DNA from: Candidatus Poribacteria bacterium
GTDB lineage: Bacteria > Poribacteria > WGA-4E > WGA-3G
DNA length: 64,000 bases
Reading direction: 5' to 3'
NCBI GenBank assembly: GCA_963665235.2
Contig: CAXXLX010000001.1
Location: forward strand, 704,001-768,000
Shown: positions 3,579 to 56,443 of the stretch, piece after piece
Numbering within the stretch: the stretch's first letter is position 1
Layout: each line of letters opens with the position of its first letter
Position numbers and translations under genes: made by a program
The notes under the pieces: model-generated
Told to the model about the DNA's origin: nothing
Seen by the model: the letters and a program-made list of their open reading frames with translations, nothing else
The model's database searches: none

Positions 3579-4060
3579 TACCATTTCTAATTGAAAATGT
3601 CTCTTTCTTGTAGCCTAAACTTCCAGTTTGTGCTTTGTAGTAGCCTAAACTTCCAGTTTGTGCTTTGTAGTAGCCTAAACTTCCAGTTTGTGCTTTGTAG
3701 TAGCCTAAACTTCCAGTTTGTGCTTTGTAGTAGCCTAAACTTCCAGTTTGTGCTTTGTAGTAGCCTAAACTTCCAGTTTGTGCTTTGTAGTAGCCTAAAC
3801 TTCCAGTTTGTGCTTTGTAGTAGCCTAAACTTCCAGTTTGTGCTTTGTAGTAGCCTAAACTTCCAGTTTGTGCTTTGTAGTAGCCTAAACTTCCAGTTTG
3901 TGCTTTGTAGTAGCCTAAACTTCCAGTTTGTGCTTTGTAGTAGCCTAAACTTCCAGTTTGTGCTTTGTTGTAGCCTAAACTTCCAGTTTGTGCGTTCTTG
4001 TAGCCTAAACTTCCAGTTTGTGCGTTCTTGTAGCCTAAACTTTTAGTTTGGGTCCTCCGT
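3579..4060 (+). repeat. MITE family A copy 1 (right end lost): 15 hairpin cores in 30-bp tandem units
   Basis: Leader TACCATTTCTAATTGAAAATGTCTCTTTCTTG; core TAGCCTAAACTTCCAGTTTG every 30 bp from 3611 to 4031; linker TGCTTTGTAG x11, then variants. Confidence 0.9.
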
Positions 4061-6904: not shown

Positions 6905-7560
6905 TACCATTTCTAATTGAAAATGTCTCTTTCTTGTAGCCTAAACTTCCAGTTTGTGCACTTTCTTGTAGCCTAAACTTCCAGTTTGTGCACTTTCTTG
7001 TAGCCTAAACTTCCAGTTTGTGCACTTTCTTGTAGCCTAAACTTCCAGTTTGTGCACTTTCTTGTAGCCTAAACTTCCAGTTTGTGCACTTTCTTGTAGC
7101 CTAAACTTCCAGTTTGTGCACTTTCTTGTAGCCTAAACTTCCAGTTTGTGCACTTTCTTGTAGCCTAAACTTCCAGTTTGTGCACTTTCTTGTAGCCTAA
7201 ACTTCCAGTTTGTGCACTTTCTTGTAGCCTAAACTTCCAGTTTGTGCACTTTCTTGTAGCCTAAACTTCCAGTTTGTGCACTTTCTTGTAGCCTAAACTT
7301 CCAGTTTGTGCACTTTCTTGTAGCCTAAACTTCCAGTTTGTGCACTTTCTTGTAGCCTAAACTTCCAGTTTGTGCACTTTCTTGTAGCCTAAACTTCCAG
7401 TTTGTGCACTTTCTTGTAGCCTAAACTTCCAGTTTGTGCACTTTCTTGTAGCCTAAACTTCCAGTTTGTGCACTTTCTTGTAGCCTAAACTTCCAGTTTG
7501 TGCCGTTCTTTGTTTCATTTCTAACAACCGGTAATGATAGAATAATTAATAAAAATGGTA
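6905..7560 (+). repeat. MITE family A copy 2: 18 cores in 32-bp tandem units
   Basis: Ends TACCATTT...AAATGGTA with TAA duplicated; unit TAGCCTAAACTTCCAGTTTGTGCACTTTCTTG, cores 6937-7481. Confidence 0.92.
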
Positions 7561-27631: not shown

Positions 27632-27843
27632 TACCATTTTTATTAATTATTCTATCATTACCGATTGTTAGAAATGAAACGGAGAACGACCCAAACTGGA
27701 AGTTTATGCTACAATAAAGAGGCACAAACTGGAAGTTTATGCTACAATAAAGAGGCACAAACTGGAAGTTTATGCTACAATAAAGAGGCACAAACTGGAA
27801 GTTTATGCTACAATAAAGAGACATTTTCAATTTAGAAATGGTA
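27632..27843 (-). repeat. MITE family A copy 3 (reverse orientation): 4 cores in 33-bp units
   Basis: Same leader and trailer as copies 2 and 4 on the minus strand; TTA duplicated; core TAGCATAAACTTCCAGTTTG, linker TGCCTCTTTATTG. Confidence 0.9.
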
Positions 27844-28544: not shown

Positions 28545-29825
28545 TTACCGCCTCTTGGACGGTTTACTTGATATGAGTCCCGAAAACGGTGACCACGAAT
28601 CAAGTCTACATAGGTTCGGATTATACCTGATACCTACGGGGGATACCACCACCCCGACTACAGGGTTAAAAAGGTAACCCTGATACGCTGTGAGAATATT
28701 ACTCGCACCCACTACATCTCTATGACCGTGCCACCCGCATTTGGGGCATTTATATTTTCGTTTGACTGGTTTTTTGCGATTACCGCAACTTGGGCAGGTT
28801 TGAGAGGTATAGGCTTCGTTTTGGGTATCAACTTTGATACCAAGTGCTTTTGCTTTGTAGGTAATCATCTCTCTAAACTGAGAGAATGCCCACTGGTGTA
28901 ACTTCTCATTGGTTTTTCTACCGTAGTTTATGGATTGTCGGATATGCTTAATATCACCAATAACAATCGTTTCTATCTTTCGCTCTCGGCAAGTAGAAAC
29001 AAAACGTGATGTGATTTTGTGTCGCATGTCACGTAACTGCGACGCTATTTTTGCCAGGAGTTTATCTTTAGCGCGCTTAAGTTTTTTCCAACGCCGACTG
29101 CCTCGCTTGCATCTTGAGAGTTTACGGTTGAGACCCCCTTTGGACTTCTCGCGATACCGCACTTTACTGCGGTGTTCTCGTCCGTTGTAGATTTCGGCAG
29201 TGATACCGTCGAAAGCAGTGATTGGGTGTATTTCACCCATATCGACTGCAACGGCTGTCCCGTGTTTTATCTTTGGCTGTTTCGGTTGTGTTTGGTACGT
29301 TGCATGGAACTCATACGCTTTTGTTATTTTGTTGTAGACAAGGGATACTTCGGTTGGCACAATCTTATGGAATTTCTTGTCAAGCTTGATATAGAGGGCT
29401 TCCCGTCCTTGACCCATAGACAATCGGAGTCTGCCATGTTTATAGGTGATACCCGTTGCACGCCAGGTGAAAGTGTGGAATTTATATGTCCGTTTCGGCG
29501 GCTTTGCCTTGGGATTAGATTGTTTATTCGAAAAGAAAGAACGCCTCGCACCGCAATAGTCGTCTATAACTGCCTGAACAGAATGGGCATGGCAGGGATA
29601 CCGCTTAAACTTAAGATATTTCTTGAGGCCAGCGTCCGACAACCAAAAACCCTTTTTGTTGTATGTTCTAAACGCAAGTGATACCGTTTTGGAATAGATT
29701 CGCCCACCGAGACGATTTATCGCGTCTAATTCCGCTGTCGGTTTTGCTGTTGCTATAATGTAGGTTCGAAACGTTTTGGTATCCTTTTTAGACATGCTTT
29801 TGGTCCTCAATATACTTTTTGACAA
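28545..29825 (-). CDS. tnpB: TnpB RNA-guided endonuclease
   Basis: RuvC-I AVDMGE, IVIGDI, NEAYTSQTCPSCG...CPKCG zinc ribbon, RuvC-III HRDVVGA. Confidence 0.92.
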   Translation of the reverse strand: MSKSILRTKSMSKKDTKTFRTYIIATAKPTAELDAINRLGGRIYSKTVSLAFRTYNKKGFWLSDAGLKKYLKFKRYPCHAHSVQAVIDDYCGARRSFFSNKQSNPKAKPPKRTYKFHTFTWRATGITYKHGRLRLSMGQGREALYIKLDKKFHKIVPTEVSLVYNKITKAYEFHATYQTQPKQPKIKHGTAVAVDMGEIHPITAFDGITAEIYNGREHRSKVRYREKSKGGLNRKLSRCKRGSRRWKKLKRAKDKLLAKIASQLRDMRHKITSRFVSTCRERKIETIVIGDIKHIRQSINYGRKTNEKLHQWAFSQFREMITYKAKALGIKVDTQNEAYTSQTCPSCGNRKKPVKRKYKCPKCGWHGHRDVVGASNILTAYQGYLFNPVVGVVVSPVGIRYNPNLCRLDSWSPFSGLISSKPSKRR

Positions 29826-30201
29826 CTTCTAAGGAGGTGCTACCTACAGATGATATAAATTTAGAACGCGTCCACAAACAAGGCAAGCGAGATTTTAGGA
29901 ATGCCAACTCCTCACGTAACACCCTAGAGGTAAACCCTTTTATCAGCCCAACCGTCCGTGTAACTGGCACTTTTGGGGTGTTTTCTATTATCATAAGCAC
30001 GGGGTCTTCCATAACCTCGCTGGCACACACCTTAAAATCTAACTCGGTTTGTTTAGAACAGATTAGATGGTGCAAGCGTTTTTGTATCGGTTCGGTTAAA
30101 ACTTGGTGCCGATACTTCGGACACCAGACGACATGATACTGACAACTGTAAACAAGGTTTGTCTCGGAGGACCAATGCTTTTCTCCATTCTTAATAAACA
30201 T
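29788..30201 (-). CDS. tnpA: IS200-type Y1 transposase TnpA with a degenerate HUH motif
   Basis: YHVVWCPKYR, KGFTSR, LWTRS, YIEDQ; DPVL in place of DHVH. Confidence 0.88.
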   Translation of the reverse strand: MFIKNGEKHWSSETNLVYSCQYHVVWCPKYRHQVLTEPIQKRLHHLICSKQTELDFKVCASEVMEDPVLMIIENTPKVPVTRTVGLIKGFTSRVLREELAFLKSRLPCLWTRSKFISSVGSTSLEVVKKYIEDQKHV

Positions 30202-32575: not shown

Positions 32576-32855
32576 AGCGTCCTCCAGTATTCGGGCACCA
32601 GCCCGCTCCTAATTCTGTTTGTGTTGCGTCCAAGTATCCGCGAATGAAATGTTTGAATCATAGGCTTCCGCTCACCTGCCACCGTTGTTGCAGGTGTGAA
32701 AGTTAAAATTCTAGTTTGGAATTACACGTGTTGAAACAGTATACCTGAAAAATAGATGTGCGTCAAGAAAATTGAATTTACTTTGCAGTTTAATAAGGCG
32801 AATCTAAGGAAAAACGAACCGCAGGGATAGCGTACGGAGAATGCTTACTACCATA

Positions 32856-33085
32856 ACCTAAGTTGCCACATAGTAGCATAATCTTCCAGATTGTGCATAT
32901 TTGTGTGCACATAGTAGCATAATCTTCCAGATTGTGCATATTTGTGTGCACATAGTAGCATAATCTTCCAGATTGTGCATATTTGTGTGCACATAGTAGC
33001 ATAATCTTCCAGATTGTGCATATTTGTGTGCACATAGTAGCATAATCTTCCAGATTGTGCATATTTGTGTGCAAATTGGAAGTGG
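32856..33085 (+). repeat. MITE family B copy 2 (right end lost): 5 x 41-bp units
   Basis: Unit CACATAGTAGCATAATCTTCCAGATTGTGCATATTTGTGTG; GTAG at 32873, 32914, 32955, 32996, 33037. Confidence 0.9.
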
Positions 33086-33131
33086 CCATTTAGTTTTCGA
33101 TATTTTTCGCCGGTTTTTTAACAAACCTCTT

Positions 33132-33330
33132 CTATGGTTTGGATAATATCAGTCCGGTTGATGCCCGGTTTTCAAAGCATTTCTGATTTTTCTCAAAGTT
33201 CCTCACACAAGTCCAACTTGTAGAAAATAGACTCGAATGCACGCAAGCGCAGCCCCATCGGGGCGGAATGTTTATAGAAGCACACAACCACCCCACAACC
33301 TAGCCCCATCGGGGCGGAATGTTTATAGGA
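33132..33330 (+). mobile_element. MITE family C partial copy (left half)
   Basis: Aligns by eye with 27854-28050, including two GCCCCATCGGGGC hairpins. Confidence 0.75.
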
Positions 33331-33490
33331 TTCGATAATTGCCAGCGTTGCCAATCGCCAATTTACAATCCGCGAAATACGTGTAATCCGCGATTTGCAA
33401 GGCGAATTTAAGGAAAAACGAACCATAGGGATAGCGTACGGAGAATGCTTACTACCATAACCTAAGTTGCCACATAGTAGCATAATCTTC

Positions 33491-34731
33491 ATGAAGATTA
33501 AGAAATTAATTCGGTAATTTCTGTTTTTATGTTATCCTATTGTCCCAGGAGGTATTGTCTTATGTCAAAACGCCATGAACTTGAACTCAGTAAAGATGAA
33601 CGCCAAAGACTGATTGAACTCCGCGATACAGGGGAACCCGCTTATCTTCGGGAACGTGCGGCTGCCCTGCTAAAGATAGCCGCGGGAACTTCTCCACACA
33701 AAGTCGCCCTCAAAGGGCTGCTAAAGAAGCGAGATCCGGACACTGTTTATGCCTGGCTTCGCCGATACCAAGAAGAGGGCATTCAAGGATTGTTTCATAG
33801 ACCGGGCCGTGGCCGCAAACCCGCGTTCGCCCCCAAATCCCCCGAAGAAGCAGAAACCGAGGCGTTGACGGCTATAGGACAAGACCCGGGACAAGTCAAG
33901 GCACATCAAACGCGCTGGACGCTTCGCACGGTTGGCGAGGTTGTGCCGTGGCTTGCTAATATCTCTGTGCCGGGTATCCATCAAATCTTCTCACGCCTGG
34001 GCATCAGCTATAAGCGTGCTAGACTGTATTTGCAGAGTCCGGATACAGACTATGCCAAGAAAATCGAACGGATACAGCAAGTTTTAGAAGAGACCCATCA
34101 AAACCCACAGAACACGGCTGTGCTTTATCAAGATGAGTTCTCATTTTACCGAAACCCCACTATAGCAAAAGACTGGGCACAGACAGGGACAAAAACGCCA
34201 TTAGCCCATCAGAGTTATCAATCGGATAAAACTATTTATGGTATCGGTGCTATGAACCCCCATACAGGAGACGTTGTTTATCAGCAAGTGCCAAGCTGCA
34301 CAGTTGTAGCCCTCCATACATTTTATACCGAGATTTGCCAACGCTATCCCGACAAGCAACGGATTTATCTTATCCAAGATAATCGGGCGATACATTTTCA
34401 CGCCAATTTGATGGAGGCACTGCTGCCGCAATCGGTCTCCTTTGTGAAACCGACCCCGCCGAATTGGACCGGAAAACTTTCCGAGAAAATCGGTGAACTG
34501 ACAAAACTCCCGATTGAAATAGTGCAGCTGCCGACTTATGCGCCGTGGACAAATCCGATTGAGAAGTTATGGCGATGGGTGCGGCAATCGGTTCTGCATA
34601 TCCATCGCCTCTGCGATGAGTGGGAGACCCTCAAAGACAAGGTGCTTGACTTTATGACACAGTTTAGAGGCGGCTCACAAGCATTGCTACGCTATGTCGG
34701 ATTATTACCGAATTAATAAATTAATCTTCAT
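33491..34731 (+). mobile_element. IS630-family insertion sequence
   Basis: 28-bp TIR ATGAAGATTAAnnnATTAATTCGGTAAT (3 mismatches) enclosing a single transposase ORF. Confidence 0.9.
33562..34716 (+). CDS. IS630-family DDE transposase
   Basis: HTH with PGRGRKP; YQDEF, QDNRAIH, LPTYAPWTNPIEKLW catalytic motifs; AGGAGG RBS. Confidence 0.93.
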   Translation: MSKRHELELSKDERQRLIELRDTGEPAYLRERAAALLKIAAGTSPHKVALKGLLKKRDPDTVYAWLRRYQEEGIQGLFHRPGRGRKPAFAPKSPEEAETEALTAIGQDPGQVKAHQTRWTLRTVGEVVPWLANISVPGIHQIFSRLGISYKRARLYLQSPDTDYAKKIERIQQVLEETHQNPQNTAVLYQDEFSFYRNPTIAKDWAQTGTKTPLAHQSYQSDKTIYGIGAMNPHTGDVVYQQVPSCTVVALHTFYTEICQRYPDKQRIYLIQDNRAIHFHANLMEALLPQSVSFVKPTPPNWTGKLSEKIGELTKLPIEIVQLPTYAPWTNPIEKLWRWVRQSVLHIHRLCDEWETLKDKVLDFMTQFRGGSQALLRYVGLLPN

Positions 34732-35089
34732 CCAGATTGTGCATATTTGTGTGCACATAGTAGCATAATCTTCCAGATTGTGCATATTTGTGTGCACATA
34801 GTAGCATAATCTTCCAGATTGTGCATATTTGTGTGCAAATTGGAAGTGAACGGGACAAATATTAGCTAATTCTCAGCATATTTTCAGTAAAGCCGGTGTT
34901 TCCAGGTCTAAAAACTTATAAGTAGCAACTTGGGTTACCATATCTGCCCCATATCGTGCAGCACACAACCGAAACTGCACGCTTTCGTGCAGTTTATCAA
35001 CTGAGAGCCGTGATGTATAGACTTCAGATATTGGCATAGAAATTGCATATCATTTGATAGACATGCAAAAAGCAATTTGGAGGTCTCTT

Positions 35090-37405
35090 ATGAAAACACT
35101 TACTCCCCTTTTACGACAAAAGTTACAGGTTTTTCTCATTTTCATCGGTATAGCAGTGATACCGTGTGTTGCATTTGGACTTGAACCCATCGCTACGATT
35201 GGACAGCCGGTGCCTGAAGCACATGTCTTCCTTACGAATGATACGTTCCTTCGGGTCGTTCCAACACACCTTCAGGTTGTTGATATCGATATGAAAGAGG
35301 TCATAGCTGAATTCGGTGAGCGAACATATCTCAGCGATGTCGTGTTTAACCCGACCGGTTCACATGTCGCAATTCTAAACTATTCTACCGATACGGAGAA
35401 AACTACTGTAAACATCTGGGATGTTAACGCTAGAGAACAGATAAACGCGCTGGAGATAGAGGAAGAGAGCCGTATTTTTGATAACGCTGCTTTTAGTCCA
35501 ACACAACCTATATTGGCTCTCCCTATCGCTCGCGACATCCATTTATGGAACTGGCAGAATGGGGAGATTGTCGGAAAACTGATACGCGAAAATATGTCTA
35601 CTGGGGAGGCAATGATTTTCACGCCAGATGGCAACTATCTTATCATATCCACGTGGCAGCCGGGTATTGAGGTGTGGAACGTTGAAACCCGGCAGCTACA
35701 AGGACGGTATGAGGAACAGATTGTGCATCGGTTTGACACCTTGGCAATCAGTCCCGATGGCACAACGGTAGCGGCATTCGAAGAAAATTCAAATTTAATT
35801 TATGTTTGGAATGTGGAGACGCAACGACTGTTATGGCGCGAAAAGAATGGAATCAGCAGAATTTCAGATGTTGTCTTCAGTCCAGATAGCCAACGTTTGT
35901 ATGTTTCAAGTTGGACAGGTGGGTTACAGAGGTCTGGTGCTACTCCCTGGAAAGGTTGGGATGATAAAGTGCGCGTCTGGGATGTTAAATCGGGACAACA
36001 GATAGATACATTCGGCACCAAGTTTCATTATTTAGAAGCGATAACCCTCTCGCCGGATGAGAAAACTGTGCTCCTGCAATATTCGGATGTTGTTGTGCTA
36101 TGGGATATAGTGCAAAAGAAACTGCTGAACGTGTGGGCAGATTTTGTCGGACGCTGGAGAACTATTAGCAACTTGAGCCCTGATGGAAAAACCGTGGTCA
36201 CAATGTCTCGACAGTTTATTAAGACATGGGATGTTGCGTCCCAACAGATGGGTCTACTCATTTCTGCCGAGGACTATATGTTTGAAGGGTTTGCAATCTC
36301 TCCCGATAGCCAAAAAATCGCAGTGAGTAAAGAACCCTTGTTTGAGTTATACGACATTCGGACCGGTGAAGTTGAAACGCAATTTTCGGAGTACCTCTCA
36401 GCAGATTATGAAATCGCCTTCAGTCCCTCCGGCAGATGGATTGCAGTGGTTGATCTTTGGGGTGCTCTTATTATCTTTGACACTAAAAATCCGGGAAAAA
36501 AGCATGAACTTAATGTAAACTTGCCTATTGACAGACACTACTGCTATCAGCTCGCTTTCAGTAAAGATGGGACATATTTGGCAGCCTCCAGCCGGACAAA
36601 ACAGAATAATATCTATAAAGATTGGGTTCTGTTATGGCGGTTTGAGCGCGATACATTTACCTTTCGATACGCTTGGCGAGTGCCAGAACCCCTTGATGCA
36701 TCCCTCGCCTTTACAACCAGTCCCGATGGTTCGACAGTGTTAGCAGGCTCCGATGAGGAAAAAATCCGAATTTGGAAAATCTTGTCAGGCGGTTCTACAC
36801 TTTTAACAACGTTGAATGCAAAGGGACCGGGGCGATTTAGTTCAGCGGGTTCAATGCAATTTAGTCCAGATGGCCGCTATCTTTTTGTAAACCAAGATAG
36901 GCGTTTTCAAATCTGGGACTGGCAGACAAACAGGCCTATCGATCATGCTTCGCTTCCATATTTTAGTGCACTCAGTCAGGATGGGACTTTGTTGCTTTCA
37001 CCGGATTATATAACCGGACAATATGAGATATGGGATATAAGGAACGTCCTATCCCTCCTCCCCTATTCGGTTGAACCCCGCGGCAAGCGGCTTGTCACCC
37101 TCGGACAGATAAAACGGGCTCAACTCCTGCAAAACTTTCCGAACCCGTTCAACCCAGAGACCTGGATACCGTTTCGGCTTGCGACCGAAAGTCTTGTCAC
37201 CATTCGTATCTATACCCCCACCGGGAAGTTGGTCAGAACGTTATCCCCCGGACTCACGTCCGCCGGAGCACATGCATCACAAGCAAAGGCTGTGCACTGG
37301 GATGGGCGCAATGACGCGGGTGAACAGGTTAGCAGCGGTGTCTATCTTTATACTATCGATGCCGGTGGTTTCTCCGATACGCGCAAAATGTTGATAAAAA
37401 AATAA
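35090..37405 (+). CDS. Secreted WD40-repeat protein with C-terminal FlgD-Ig/sorting domain
   Basis: FSPDG/WD repeats; VEPRGKRLVTLGQIKR then QNFPNPFNPETWIPF...WDGRNDAGEQVSSGVY. Confidence 0.9.
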   Translation: MKTLTPLLRQKLQVFLIFIGIAVIPCVAFGLEPIATIGQPVPEAHVFLTNDTFLRVVPTHLQVVDIDMKEVIAEFGERTYLSDVVFNPTGSHVAILNYSTDTEKTTVNIWDVNAREQINALEIEEESRIFDNAAFSPTQPILALPIARDIHLWNWQNGEIVGKLIRENMSTGEAMIFTPDGNYLIISTWQPGIEVWNVETRQLQGRYEEQIVHRFDTLAISPDGTTVAAFEENSNLIYVWNVETQRLLWREKNGISRISDVVFSPDSQRLYVSSWTGGLQRSGATPWKGWDDKVRVWDVKSGQQIDTFGTKFHYLEAITLSPDEKTVLLQYSDVVVLWDIVQKKLLNVWADFVGRWRTISNLSPDGKTVVTMSRQFIKTWDVASQQMGLLISAEDYMFEGFAISPDSQKIAVSKEPLFELYDIRTGEVETQFSEYLSADYEIAFSPSGRWIAVVDLWGALIIFDTKNPGKKHELNVNLPIDRHYCYQLAFSKDGTYLAASSRTKQNNIYKDWVLLWRFERDTFTFRYAWRVPEPLDASLAFTTSPDGSTVLAGSDEEKIRIWKILSGGSTLLTTLNAKGPGRFSSAGSMQFSPDGRYLFVNQDRRFQIWDWQTNRPIDHASLPYFSALSQDGTLLLSPDYITGQYEIWDIRNVLSLLPYSVEPRGKRLVTLGQIKRAQLLQNFPNPFNPETWIPFRLATESLVTIRIYTPTGKLVRTLSPGLTSAGAHASQAKAVHWDGRNDAGEQVSSGVYLYTIDAGGFSDTRKMLIKK

Positions 37406-41896: not shown

Positions 41897-41936
41897 ATGA
41901 AGATTAAAAAATTAATTCGGTAATTGCTGTTTTTAT
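41897..41936 (+). mobile_element. Solo IS630 left end
   Basis: Matches 33491-33530 at 38 of 40 positions. Confidence 0.8.
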
Positions 41937-41963: not shown

Positions 41964-42354
41964 CAATCATCCAGATTGTGCCCATAGTAGCATAATCATC
42001 CAGATTGTGCGTAGTAGCATAATCATCCAGATTGTGCGTAGTAGCATAATCATCCAGATTGTTAGTAGCATAATCATCCAGATTGTGCGTAGTAGCATAA
42101 TCATCCAGATTGTGCGTAGTAGCATAATCATCCAGATTGTGCGTAGTAGCATAATCATCCAGATTGTGCGTAGTAGCATAATCATCCAGATTGTGCGTAG
42201 TAGCATAATCATCCAGATTGTGCGTAGTAGCATAATCATCCAGATTGTGCGTAGTAGCATAATCATCCAGATTGTGCGTAGTAGCATAATCATCCAGATT
42301 GTGCGTAGTAGCATAATCATCCAGATTGTGCGTAGTGGCATAATCTTCCAGATT
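41964..42354 (+). repeat. Tandem array of 27-bp hairpin units (13 units, one 3 bp short, plus degenerate ends)
   Basis: Unit GTAGTAGCATAATCATCCAGATTGTGC. Confidence 0.92.
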
Positions 42355-43869: not shown

Positions 43870-44280
43870 AAATGTCTCTTTCTTGTAGCATAAACTTCCA
43901 GTTTGTGCGGTTCTAGTATCATAAACTTCCAGTTTGTGCGGTTCTAGTATCATAAACTTCCAGTTTGTGCGGTTCTAGTATCATAAACTTCCAGTTTGTG
44001 CGGTTCTAGTATCATAAACTTCCAGTTTGTGCGGTTCTAGTATCATAAACTTCCAGTTTGTGCGGTTCTAGTATCATAAACTTCCAGTTTGTGCGGTTCT
44101 AGTATCATAAACTTCCAGTTTGTGCGGTTCTAGTATCATAAACTTCCAGTTTGTGCGGTTCTAGTATCATAAACTTCCAGTTTGTGCGGTTCTAGTATCA
44201 TAAACTTCCAGTTTGGGTCTTCCGTTCTCCGTTTCATTTCTAAACAACCGGTAATGATAGAATAATTAATAAAAATGGTA
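43854..44280 (+). repeat. MITE family A copy 4: 11 cores in 31-bp units
   Basis: TACCATTT...AAATGGTA with TTA TSD; unit TATCATAAACTTCCAGTTTGTGCGGTTCTAG, cores 43886-44196. Confidence 0.92.
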
Positions 44281-45985: not shown

Positions 45986-46278
45986 ACGCAAGTTGCCACA
46001 TAGTAGCATAATCTTCCAGATTGTGCATATTTGTGTGCGAATTGGAAGTGAACGGGACAAATATTAGCTAATTCTCAGCATATTTTCATTATAGCCGGTG
46101 TTTCCAGGTCTAAAAACTTATAAGTAACCTAAGTTGCCACATAGTAGCATAATCTTCCAGATTGTGCATATTTGTGTGCGAATTGGAAGTGAACGGGACA
46201 AATATTAGCTAATTCTCAGCATATTTTCATTATAGCCGGTGTTTCCAGGTCTAAAAACTTATAAGTAGCAACTTGGGT
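45986..46278 (+). mobile_element. MITE family B copy 4, head-to-tail dimer
   Basis: 141-bp body repeated (second start 46127); single right TIR; TSD TATCCTA around the dimer. Confidence 0.88.
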
Positions 46279-55818: not shown

Positions 55819-56443
55819 CTGTAGTTTGGACACTATCTGTCCGGTTGATGCCCGATTTTCAAAGTATTTCTGATTTTTCTCTAAGTTCCTCACACAAGTC
55901 CAACTTGTAGAAAATAGACTCGAATGCGCGGAAGCGCAGCCCCAGCGGGGCGGTATCTTTATAGAAAACACAACCACACCACAAACTAGCCCCAGCGGGG
56001 CGGTATCTTTATAGAAAACACAACCACACCACAAACTAGCCCCAGCGGGGCGGTATCTTTATAGAAAACACAACCACACCACAAACTAGCCCCAGCGGGG
56101 CGGTATCTTTATAGAAAACACAACCACACCACAAACTAGCCCCAGCGGGGCGGTATCTTTATAGAAAACACAACCACACCACAAACTAGCCCCAGCGGGG
56201 CGGTATCTTTATAGAAAACACAAGAGCGGGGCGGTATCTTTATAGAAAACACAACCACACCACAAACTAGCCCCAGCGGGGCGGTATCTTTATAGATTTT
56301 AGCCAAACCCCTCTTCTTTCCGCGTCCTCTGCGTTCTCTGTGCCTTCCGTGATTCAGACAACACAAGCAAACTCCACCCTTCCATTCTTCCACCTATCCC
56401 TTTGACAATAACGTTACGCCCCCTAAAATTGTCCAAAGTTTAG
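55819..56443 (+). mobile_element. MITE family C copy with an expanded 50-bp array (8 cores, one truncated)
   Basis: TSD TAAAGAATA; unit GCCCCAGCGGGGCGGTATCTTTATAGAAAACACAACCACACCACAAACTA from 55939. Confidence 0.9.

Follow-up and report, generated by a model that had tools for sequence, protein, structure and literature searches.

Transposases of the mariner/Tc1/IS630 superfamily integrate strictly at TA dinucleotides with a 2-bp stagger (PMC5481204), and this behaviour is treated as a hallmark of the superfamily. The mariner/Tc1 target is bent by 147 degrees with its adenines flipped out, and bendable palindromic sites are favoured (PMC5481204). Repetitive extragenic palindromes (REPs) are the targets of certain insertion sequences (ISs) from other families, namely IS1397 and ISKpn1 (IS3), IS621, ISPpu9, ISPpu10 and ISPa11 (IS110), and ISRm22 (IS4) (PMC1525189). 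The survey that lists them covers the IS3, IS110, IS4, IS256 and IS5 families, and the string IS630 is absent from it (PMC1525189). For IS1272 of Staphylococcus aureus, new insertions at inverted repeats or potential stem-loop structures of differing sequence suggest that structure is recognised (PMC5678879). Here we describe an IS630-family element that splits a REP hairpin in a 64,000-nucleotide stretch of DNA from a Candidatus Poribacteria bacterium (assembly GCA_963665235.2, contig CAXXLX010000001.1, positions 704,001 to 768,000), which is hereafter called the window.

There are 11 copies of this element in the genome that keep an end, and all 11 abut the centre of a REP loop. Across 21 Poribacteria genomes, 52 of 66 copies of related elements lie in strong hairpins. 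Therefore, the targeting of hairpin loops is a rule and not an accident in this genome and its relatives. We consider it probable that the element is an active IS630-family IS that integrates at the dyad centre of short REP-type hairpins, and not at TA with a 2-bp stagger. The present analysis demonstrates its position, the duplication of one nucleotide, its family membership and the generality of these features across copies and genomes. The lineage targets REP loops, and it is most likely guided to them by structure. A REP-targeting IS630 had been proposed by a sequence-only reading of the window, and this proposal is borne out, with every other end-keeping copy at the centre of a hairpin loop. 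The same reading held that copies at ordinary TA sites would speak against the idea; we looked for such copies, and neither this genome nor 20 further genomes contradicted it.

The element and its junctions

The features that are pertinent to the insertion are as follows.

33491 to 34731, plus strand: complete IS of the IS630 family, 1241 bp, with boundaries taken from six full copies of 99-100% identity and differing flanks
33491 to 33518, plus strand: left terminal inverted repeat ATGAAGATTAAGAAATTAATTCGGTAAT, matching the right end at 25/28 positions, with the mismatches at positions 12-14
34704 to 34731, minus strand: right terminal inverted repeat, which contains the transposase stop codon (34714-34716)
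33562 to 34716, plus strand: transposase gene, 384 amino acids, the sole open reading frame of the IS, with helix-turn-helix (HTH) domains at about residues 29-154 and a DDE_3 catalytic domain (D191, D273, E334)
34426 to 34512, plus strand: extra stretch of about 25 amino acids between the second D and the E (residues about 289-317), seen in alignment A1 and as a pairwise gap against the CTAG-targeting sister family
33476 to 33490, plus strand: left half of the split REP unit, with the GTAG head, the left arm GCATAATCT, the T of the loop and C33490 (the duplicated base, which recurs at 34732)
34732 to 34742, plus strand: right half of the split REP unit, with C34732 (the second copy of the duplicated base), loop C and the right arm AGATTGTGC
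34743 to 34843, plus strand: remainder of the tandem array, 2.6 more 41-bp units, the IS being in the first unit on the side of the conserved upstream flank
33483 to 33500, no strand: 18-bp perfect palindrome TAATCTTCATGAAGATTA, composed of the REP arm TAATCTTC and the IS tip ATGAAGATTA, with a 7-bp stem

The element interrupts a single unit in a tandem array of GTAG-headed, REP-like hairpins with a 41-bp period, and the split unit was judged against the uninterrupted units at 32867-33073. The uninterrupted unit GCATAATCTTCCAGATTGTGC is 100% identical across 5.0 + 2.6 neighbouring copies, and within it the REP GTAGCATAATCTTCCAGATTGTGC has a GTAG head, then a 9-bp stem that includes one G-T pair, and a 3-nt TCC loop. 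When folded as DNA, the hairpin of the empty unit reaches -5.3 kcal/mol (z -4.05), which is matched by 0/200 shuffles. The left junction reads GCATAATCTTC/ATGAAGATTAAG at 33490/33491 and the right junction reads TTAATCTTCAT/CCAGATTGTGC at 34731/34732. The flanks are thus TTC and CCAG, compared with TTCCAG in the empty unit; a single C is present twice (at 33490 and 34732), and TA is not duplicated. This C is the middle base of the TCC loop and hence the dyad centre. The sequence-only reading had given the same junction strings and had placed the insertion in the TCC loop with no duplication of TA. Its account agrees with the sequence as far as TA is concerned and needs correction in that one nucleotide, the base at the dyad centre, is duplicated. 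The perfect palindrome that it had noted at the left junction is real. This palindrome forms a weak fold (-3.4 kcal/mol, z -2.6), and shuffled versions of the right junction fold as well as the junction itself (z -0.15).

Independent evidence for the boundaries of the IS comes from short reads of public runs, whose unitigs break at 33491 and 34731. Boundaries at TGAAG..CTTCA with a TA or TNA duplication, or asymmetric ends, were rejected for the Poribacteria copies because the A and T that adjoin the tips do not vary and are missing from unoccupied loops (TCC, TTT, GAT and others). We likewise rejected a composite element that carries REP halves along with it; the REP classes and array contexts that surround identical IS copies differ.

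The assignment to the IS630 family is supported by several lines of evidence. The transposase scores 175.5 bits against the NCBIfam model NF033545 for IS630 family transposases (cut-off 100) and 74.4 bits against the Pfam model DDE_3 (cut-off 28.6), with further matches to HTH_32/29/28/23. In alignment A1, D191 and D273 are invariant and E334 is nearly invariant. An AlphaFold2 (AF2) model of the protein (mean predicted local distance difference test, pLDDT, 85.8; predicted template modelling score 0.60) has chains of the Mos1 mariner transpososome as its top matches in the Protein Data Bank by fold search (E 8e-8, probability 1.0); a sequence search of solved structures returned a spurious Sel1 match only. 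Thus, the profile score, the DDE triad in an RNase-H-like fold, the paired HTH domains at the N-terminus and the terminal inverted repeats, of which the right one is the reverse complement of ATGAAGATTAATTTATTAATTCGGTAAT, are all those of the family. Two features depart from it. The spacing of 60 residues between the second D and the E is atypical, and the integration at TA (often CTAG or NTAN) with TA duplication that is expected of the family is lacking, with TA duplicated in 0/7 copies of this genome that keep both ends. The element is therefore a member of the IS630 family by protein and fold, yet does not use the family's target site.

The same mixture is apparent in comparison with canonical IS630/Tc1/mariner elements such as IS630 and Mos1. 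Like these, the element is single and small, with short terminal inverted repeats, an NF033545-type protein with DDE_3, HTH and RNase-H-like DDE domains, a Mos1-like predicted fold, and related MITEs (miniature transposable elements with inverted repeats) in the genome. Unlike these, it has no requirement for TA, it duplicates 1 nt, and its target is the dyad centre of a hairpin. Its 60 residues from the second D to the E also differ from the 34-41 of the canonical relatives examined.

Copies in this genome and in related genomes

There are six full copies of the element in this genome (99-100% identity), as well as one that is truncated at the 3' end, one that is split by another IS and three that are degraded. 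Ten copies are found in class-1 REPs, which read GTAGCATAA[A/T]CTTCCAG[T/A]TTGTGC with subtypes AATC and AAAC, and one is found in a different REP as GTAGGCGCGCTTTG/IS/GAAAGCACGCCTAC. Within an array, a solo left end of 22 nt (C1:853165) similarly abuts a class-1 loop. There are about 1,180 class-1 hairpins genome-wide and about 1,200 REP loop centres in 5.31 Mb. The chance of landing on a loop centre is 2.3e-4 per insertion, and with 11/11 observed, chance is negligible as an explanation. The duplicated base tracks the local loop, being C in TCC, T in TTT and G in TTTGAAA, and an occupied CTTT/TTAG unit adjoins an unoccupied CTTTTAG unit. These observations indicate that the extra base is derived from the target and is not carried by the IS. 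Relative to the REP, the IS is oriented one way in six copies and the other way in five, as is expected of a symmetric target.

Perhaps insertion is nonspecific, and copies persist only where they are harmless. REPs are intergenic and presumably neutral, which would suit this explanation. In addition, when units are counted from the conserved upstream flank, the IS occupies unit one or two in 6/7 arrays (simulated P 0.01), and this bias could reflect the loss of interior copies by unit-to-unit recombination; easier extrusion of hairpins at the edges of arrays is another possible cause. However, loop centres make up 0.02% of the genome, far below the extent of neutral intergenic space. In 11/11 copies the insertion point is precise to the base, with a consistent 1-nt duplication, and other IS630-type elements of the same genome persist outside REP centres. 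We therefore regard survivorship as very improbable and retain targeting of the loop centre as the explanation.

Additional remnants and relatives reside in the same genome. A 40-bp remnant of the left end of a related IS is located at 41897-41936 of the window, directly beside an array with a 27-bp period. Its outer flank is not a REP loop, and it is the sole doubtful case in the genome. There are also MITEs of 126-312 bp with the same ATGAAG[A/T]TTAA tips (for example C1:604999-605145, C1:674890-675036 and C1:3581536-3581664), some of which lie in REP loops and some of which do not. Several MITEs are found in REP loop centres, among them those of the rare GCGCGC-type REPs, which are used at a rate per copy far above that of class-1 REPs.

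Elements related to this IS are present in many Poribacteria genomes, with DNA 65-78% identical and transposases at most 83% identical. The set comprises the 66 copies with distinct 20+20-nt flanks, and a strong hairpin is defined as at least 6/8 pairs beyond the loop. Among the 52 copies in strong hairpins, the same base is found on both sides in 45, complementary bases in five and other combinations in two. Eight further copies have the same base on both sides and shorter stems, five of them being the 5-bp GTCCC/GGGAC stems of genome G017. In the remaining six, the two flanks are unrelated to each other, which recombination between copies would be expected to produce, and such hybrid flanks occur in G023, G062 and G083. 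In an earlier subset, 28/34 copies had an identical flanking base, with about 0.3 expected (p 4e-10). TA/IS/TA flanks are found in one of the 66 copies (G015). By genome, hairpins contain 10/10 copies in G017, 12/12 in G102 and 10/10 in G054. There are at least 120 clusters of the transposase at 61% protein identity or above. Unoccupied sites nearby also fit the gain of 1 nt, as illustrated by CCCGTAGGG in G017, and by CTGTTAG and 7/7 GCAAACT-GTN-AGTTTGC loops in G032.

Beside full IS copies at two loci of G038 (L035 and L059), short solo IS ends alternate with REP halves. These look like nested or repeated insertions into one hairpin family.

The constant position within REPs that characterises REP-targeting ISs is observed in 11/11 copies here and, across the 21 genomes, in 60/66 copies (the 52 in strong hairpins and the eight with shorter stems and an identical flanking base). 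Thus, the element works like the REP-targeting ISs of other families. As with ISs of the IS1397 and IS621 type, all or nearly all copies lie at a fixed position in REP palindromes and genes are spared (PMC1525189). Unlike the ISs of that survey, our element inserts into REPs of unrelated sequence, and always at the centre of the loop. Its target of varied sequence and common structure resembles that of IS1272, although IS1272 is reported to replace the target inverted repeat and to make no duplication (PMC5678879), whereas our element leaves the two halves of the hairpin in place and duplicates one base. Our literature search, which was made without ISfinder, TnPedia and subscription journals, yielded no report of an IS630-family element that targets REPs or hairpins and no report of a DNA transposon with a 1-bp duplication. 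IS1272 is a member of the IS1182 family and so carries a transposase of another family than the present element.

More distant relatives, 35-60% identical, are found in soil, sediment and freshwater metagenomes. These have the extended D-to-E spacing and often palindromic flanks. In 45 of them, position -2 is almost always T and position +2 almost always A, and the common pairs of flanking bases are G/A (10), T/T (7), and A/T, T/A and G/C (6 each). The 1-nt duplication is established for the Poribacteria clade only, because these metagenomic relatives would also fit 4-nt loops that are cut at the apex without duplication, or other schemes.

Recognition of the target

In the model proposed for 3-nt loops, each strand would be joined just 5' of the central base, such that this base is duplicated and the hairpin halves flank the element. 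The target would be recognised by its shape, be it an extruded cruciform, a hairpin apex or the easily kinked centre of a palindrome, and not by its sequence. The strongest argument for shape as the cue comes from G054, whose ten copies encode one and the same protein (identical scores) and are spread over five hairpins of unrelated sequence, each with a 3-nt loop. Across the clade, the target hairpins include the unrelated GTCCC-GTA-GGGAC, GAATGCC-ATA-GGCATTC and CCCCCTT-GAT-AAGGGGG.

Sequence could instead direct the element to its target. According to this explanation, the arm TAA[A/T]CTTC copies the transposase's own terminal sequence, and REPs serve as pseudo-ends. The targeting by IS30 of its own inverted repeats is a parallel. 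The IS tip and the AATC arm agree at 8/8 positions, and this match is in register with the point of insertion; IS tips (ATGAAG[A/T]TTAA) and REP arms have an A/T polymorphism in common. Moreover, 5/11 insertions are in the AATC subtype, which constitutes 10.5% of the class-1 REPs (post hoc binomial p 0.004, rising to 0.016 when two look-alike sites are treated as one). Several findings oppose this explanation. The class-2 REP that is used in this genome has only CTT in common with the tip, a single IS species in G054 is found in five unrelated hairpin sequences, and the targets in G017, G134 and G102 have no similarity to the tips even though the tips are the same. The tip is kept clade-wide, including in elements that reside in unrelated hairpins, and a near-identical tip is present in the sister family that targets CTAG. 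Because the tip is conserved whatever the local REP, the IS ends are not adapted to copy this repeat. The sequence-only reading had suspected an evolutionary link between the IS ends and the repeat core; the excess of insertions in the AATC subtype agrees with it, and the conservation of the tip regardless of target does not. Guidance by sequence is thus unlikely to account for the targeting, and a sequence bias on top of structural targeting is plausible.

Alternatively, the host might supply the specificity, with the transposase itself not reading structure. The element could be tethered through a host factor that binds REPs, or it could insert where single-stranded DNA at replication forks folds into REP hairpins. 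REPs are known to bind host proteins (PMC2817692), including gyrase (PMC3733652), and at least 10 genes for Y1 transposases (RAYT-like) are present in this genome. Junctions with complementary bases, which are described below, resemble the products of fold-back-templated repair and would imply that hairpins form in vivo. This explanation is nevertheless a rather improbable one. Different REP families in different genera are used exactly at the central base, unlike what a tether of variable distance would produce, the lack of orientation bias (6 versus 5) leaves no strand-specific signature of single-stranded targets, and REPs do not attract the canonical IS630 elements of the same cell.

The behaviour of canonical relatives was examined in three IS630-type families, two of which are from this genome, and TA or CTAG flanks are found in 12/12 of their copies. 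Family C of this genome (1229 bp, 41 residues from the second D to the E) reads CTAG/IS/CTAG in 4/4 complete copies, and one of these (G000:C2:853589-854817) is nested in a copy of the hairpin-targeting IS, at a CTAG within the transposase gene. Family B of this genome (DD34E) has TA on both sides in 3/3 copies. The third is the sister family of genomes G053 and G071 (DD35E), which has 37% protein identity to our element and nearly the same tips, ATGAAC..GTTCAT, and is flanked by CTA and TAG in 5/5 copies without a hairpin.

These families differ from the hairpin-associated clade in the spacing from the second D to the E, which is 41, 34 and 35 residues in the canonical families and 57-69 in the clade. 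The extra residues, approximately 25 in number, are missing from the sister family and from many relatives of 35-45% identity. Their acquisition may have changed how the target is handled, and as a determinant of target type they are a lead suggested by these alignments, not a result. A search of 151 Poribacteria genomes with P0123, a transposase without the extra residues, recovered mainly the same IS clade and the G053/G071 sister family. The metagenome scan returned only relatives with the extra residues, the spacing being 57-69 in 42 loci and unmeasurable in four; since all measured relatives have them, the scan offers no contrast within the set. A broader proposal can be built on this lead, namely that a branch of Tc1/mariner/IS630 gave up recognition of TA and would attack cruciform apices or the kinked centres of palindromes with a stagger of 0 or 1 nt, that the insertion of about 25 residues enabled this change, and that the branch is widespread. 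This proposal is possible, and we offer it tentatively, with more doubt than confidence.

A number of observations weigh against integration at the hairpin centre guided by structure, or against parts of the model. In the assembled contigs of four public runs, there is no empty-site joint across 33100-35100, and no occupied and empty versions of the same locus were seen, so the duplication is deduced from paralogous units. The stagger of 0-1 bp that the model calls for would be atypical of a DDE transpososome. Among the 52 copies with hairpin flanks, seven, one of them in this genome, break the rule of identical flanking bases. The one in this genome is the split copy on C2, which reads TGG/IS/CCA where TTC/IS/CCA is expected, and two independent copies in G032 read CTGT/IS/ACAG despite empty loops of the form GTN (GCAAACT-GTN-AGTTTGC in 7/7 unoccupied loops examined). 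A preference for sequence may also play a part: the overuse of the AATC subtype noted above; the overuse of TTTT loops, which hold 2/6 insertions compared with about 5% (post hoc); and the lack of insertions into REP classes with G+C-rich stems (about 170 copies), though only 1.3 were expected there. Strong palindromes are present in only 17/45 of the distant metagenomic relatives (about 0.1% expected per site), and identical flanking bases in 11/45, which is near the expectation for independence. Finally, the extra stretch is modelled with low confidence (pLDDT 62-66), and its link to target type is a single phylogenetic contrast.

In the exceptions TGG/CCA and CTGT/ACAG, the bases at one end of the IS complement those at the other end. 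Recombination between inverted IS copies was rejected as the source of TGG/CCA; the left arm keeps its own T/C wobble base. Such complementary junctions would fit fold-back synthesis, wherein a hairpin arm primes on its partner arm and on the IS end beyond, or later correction of the quasipalindrome.

REP arrays and implications

The hairpins that receive this element in its home genome have the GTAG head, the stem-loop and the high copy number of GTAG-type REPs. The described anatomy of such REPs includes the GTAG head, head-to-tail arrays and G-T pairs (PMC2817692 Table 1; PMC3733652). There are 13 Y1_Tnp matches in this genome, and no class-1 REP was found within 900 bp of any of them. The Y1 gene at C1:831796-832125 is flanked by inverted arrays of another REP class, not class-1. 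A Y1 transposase of the IS200/IS605 or RAYT-like type (107 bits) is encoded in the window at 29800-30153 on the minus strand, 3.3 kb from the IS, and hairpins of the GTAGGGG.. type adjoin it at about 30244 and 30309. A scan of the 64-kb window with Rfam at gathering thresholds gave 0 matches.

There are seven tandem arrays in the window (3603-4050, 6929-7510, 27692-27820, 32867-33073, 34731-34837, 41965-42354 and 43880-44215), which is unusually dense for head-to-tail REP arrays in one stretch of 64 kb. All seven share one GTAG-headed hairpin core, with periods of 27-41 bp, up to 18 units and 96-100% identity. Arrays of the AATC type are embedded in a larger repeated module, with the upstream flank at 32796-32866 and 33400-33470 and the downstream flank at 33074-33130 and 34844-34900; a further region concerned is 45990-46267. 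Arrays of the AAAC type elsewhere have their own conserved upstream flank (ending in CTAATTGAAAATGTCTC). Thus, the arrays may be parts of larger units that are possibly transcribed. A second hairpin repeat, GCCCC-ATC/AGC-GGGGC followed by ATGTTTATAG, is located at 33250-33320 and at 55938-56296, the latter being an array with a 50-bp period. It resembles the hairpin module that is targeted in G017, and here it is without an IS copy.

For the biology of these bacteria, the distribution of the element suggests that Poribacteria REP arrays serve as safe places to land. An element that inserts into REPs stays clear of genes, and this would account for the persistence of about a dozen identical copies. 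The junctions with complementary bases may be the footprint of hairpin extrusion in vivo. For the study of REPs, the element would bring the number of REP-targeting IS families listed in PMC1525189 from five to six. For the superfamily, the re-aiming of mariner/Tc1 transposases is a stated goal of structural work (PMC5481204), and our finding hints at a transposase that has been re-aimed naturally. A natural lineage that inserts at hairpin centres, with close canonical relatives and a discrete candidate determinant, provides an experimental handle on how the choice of target is encoded.

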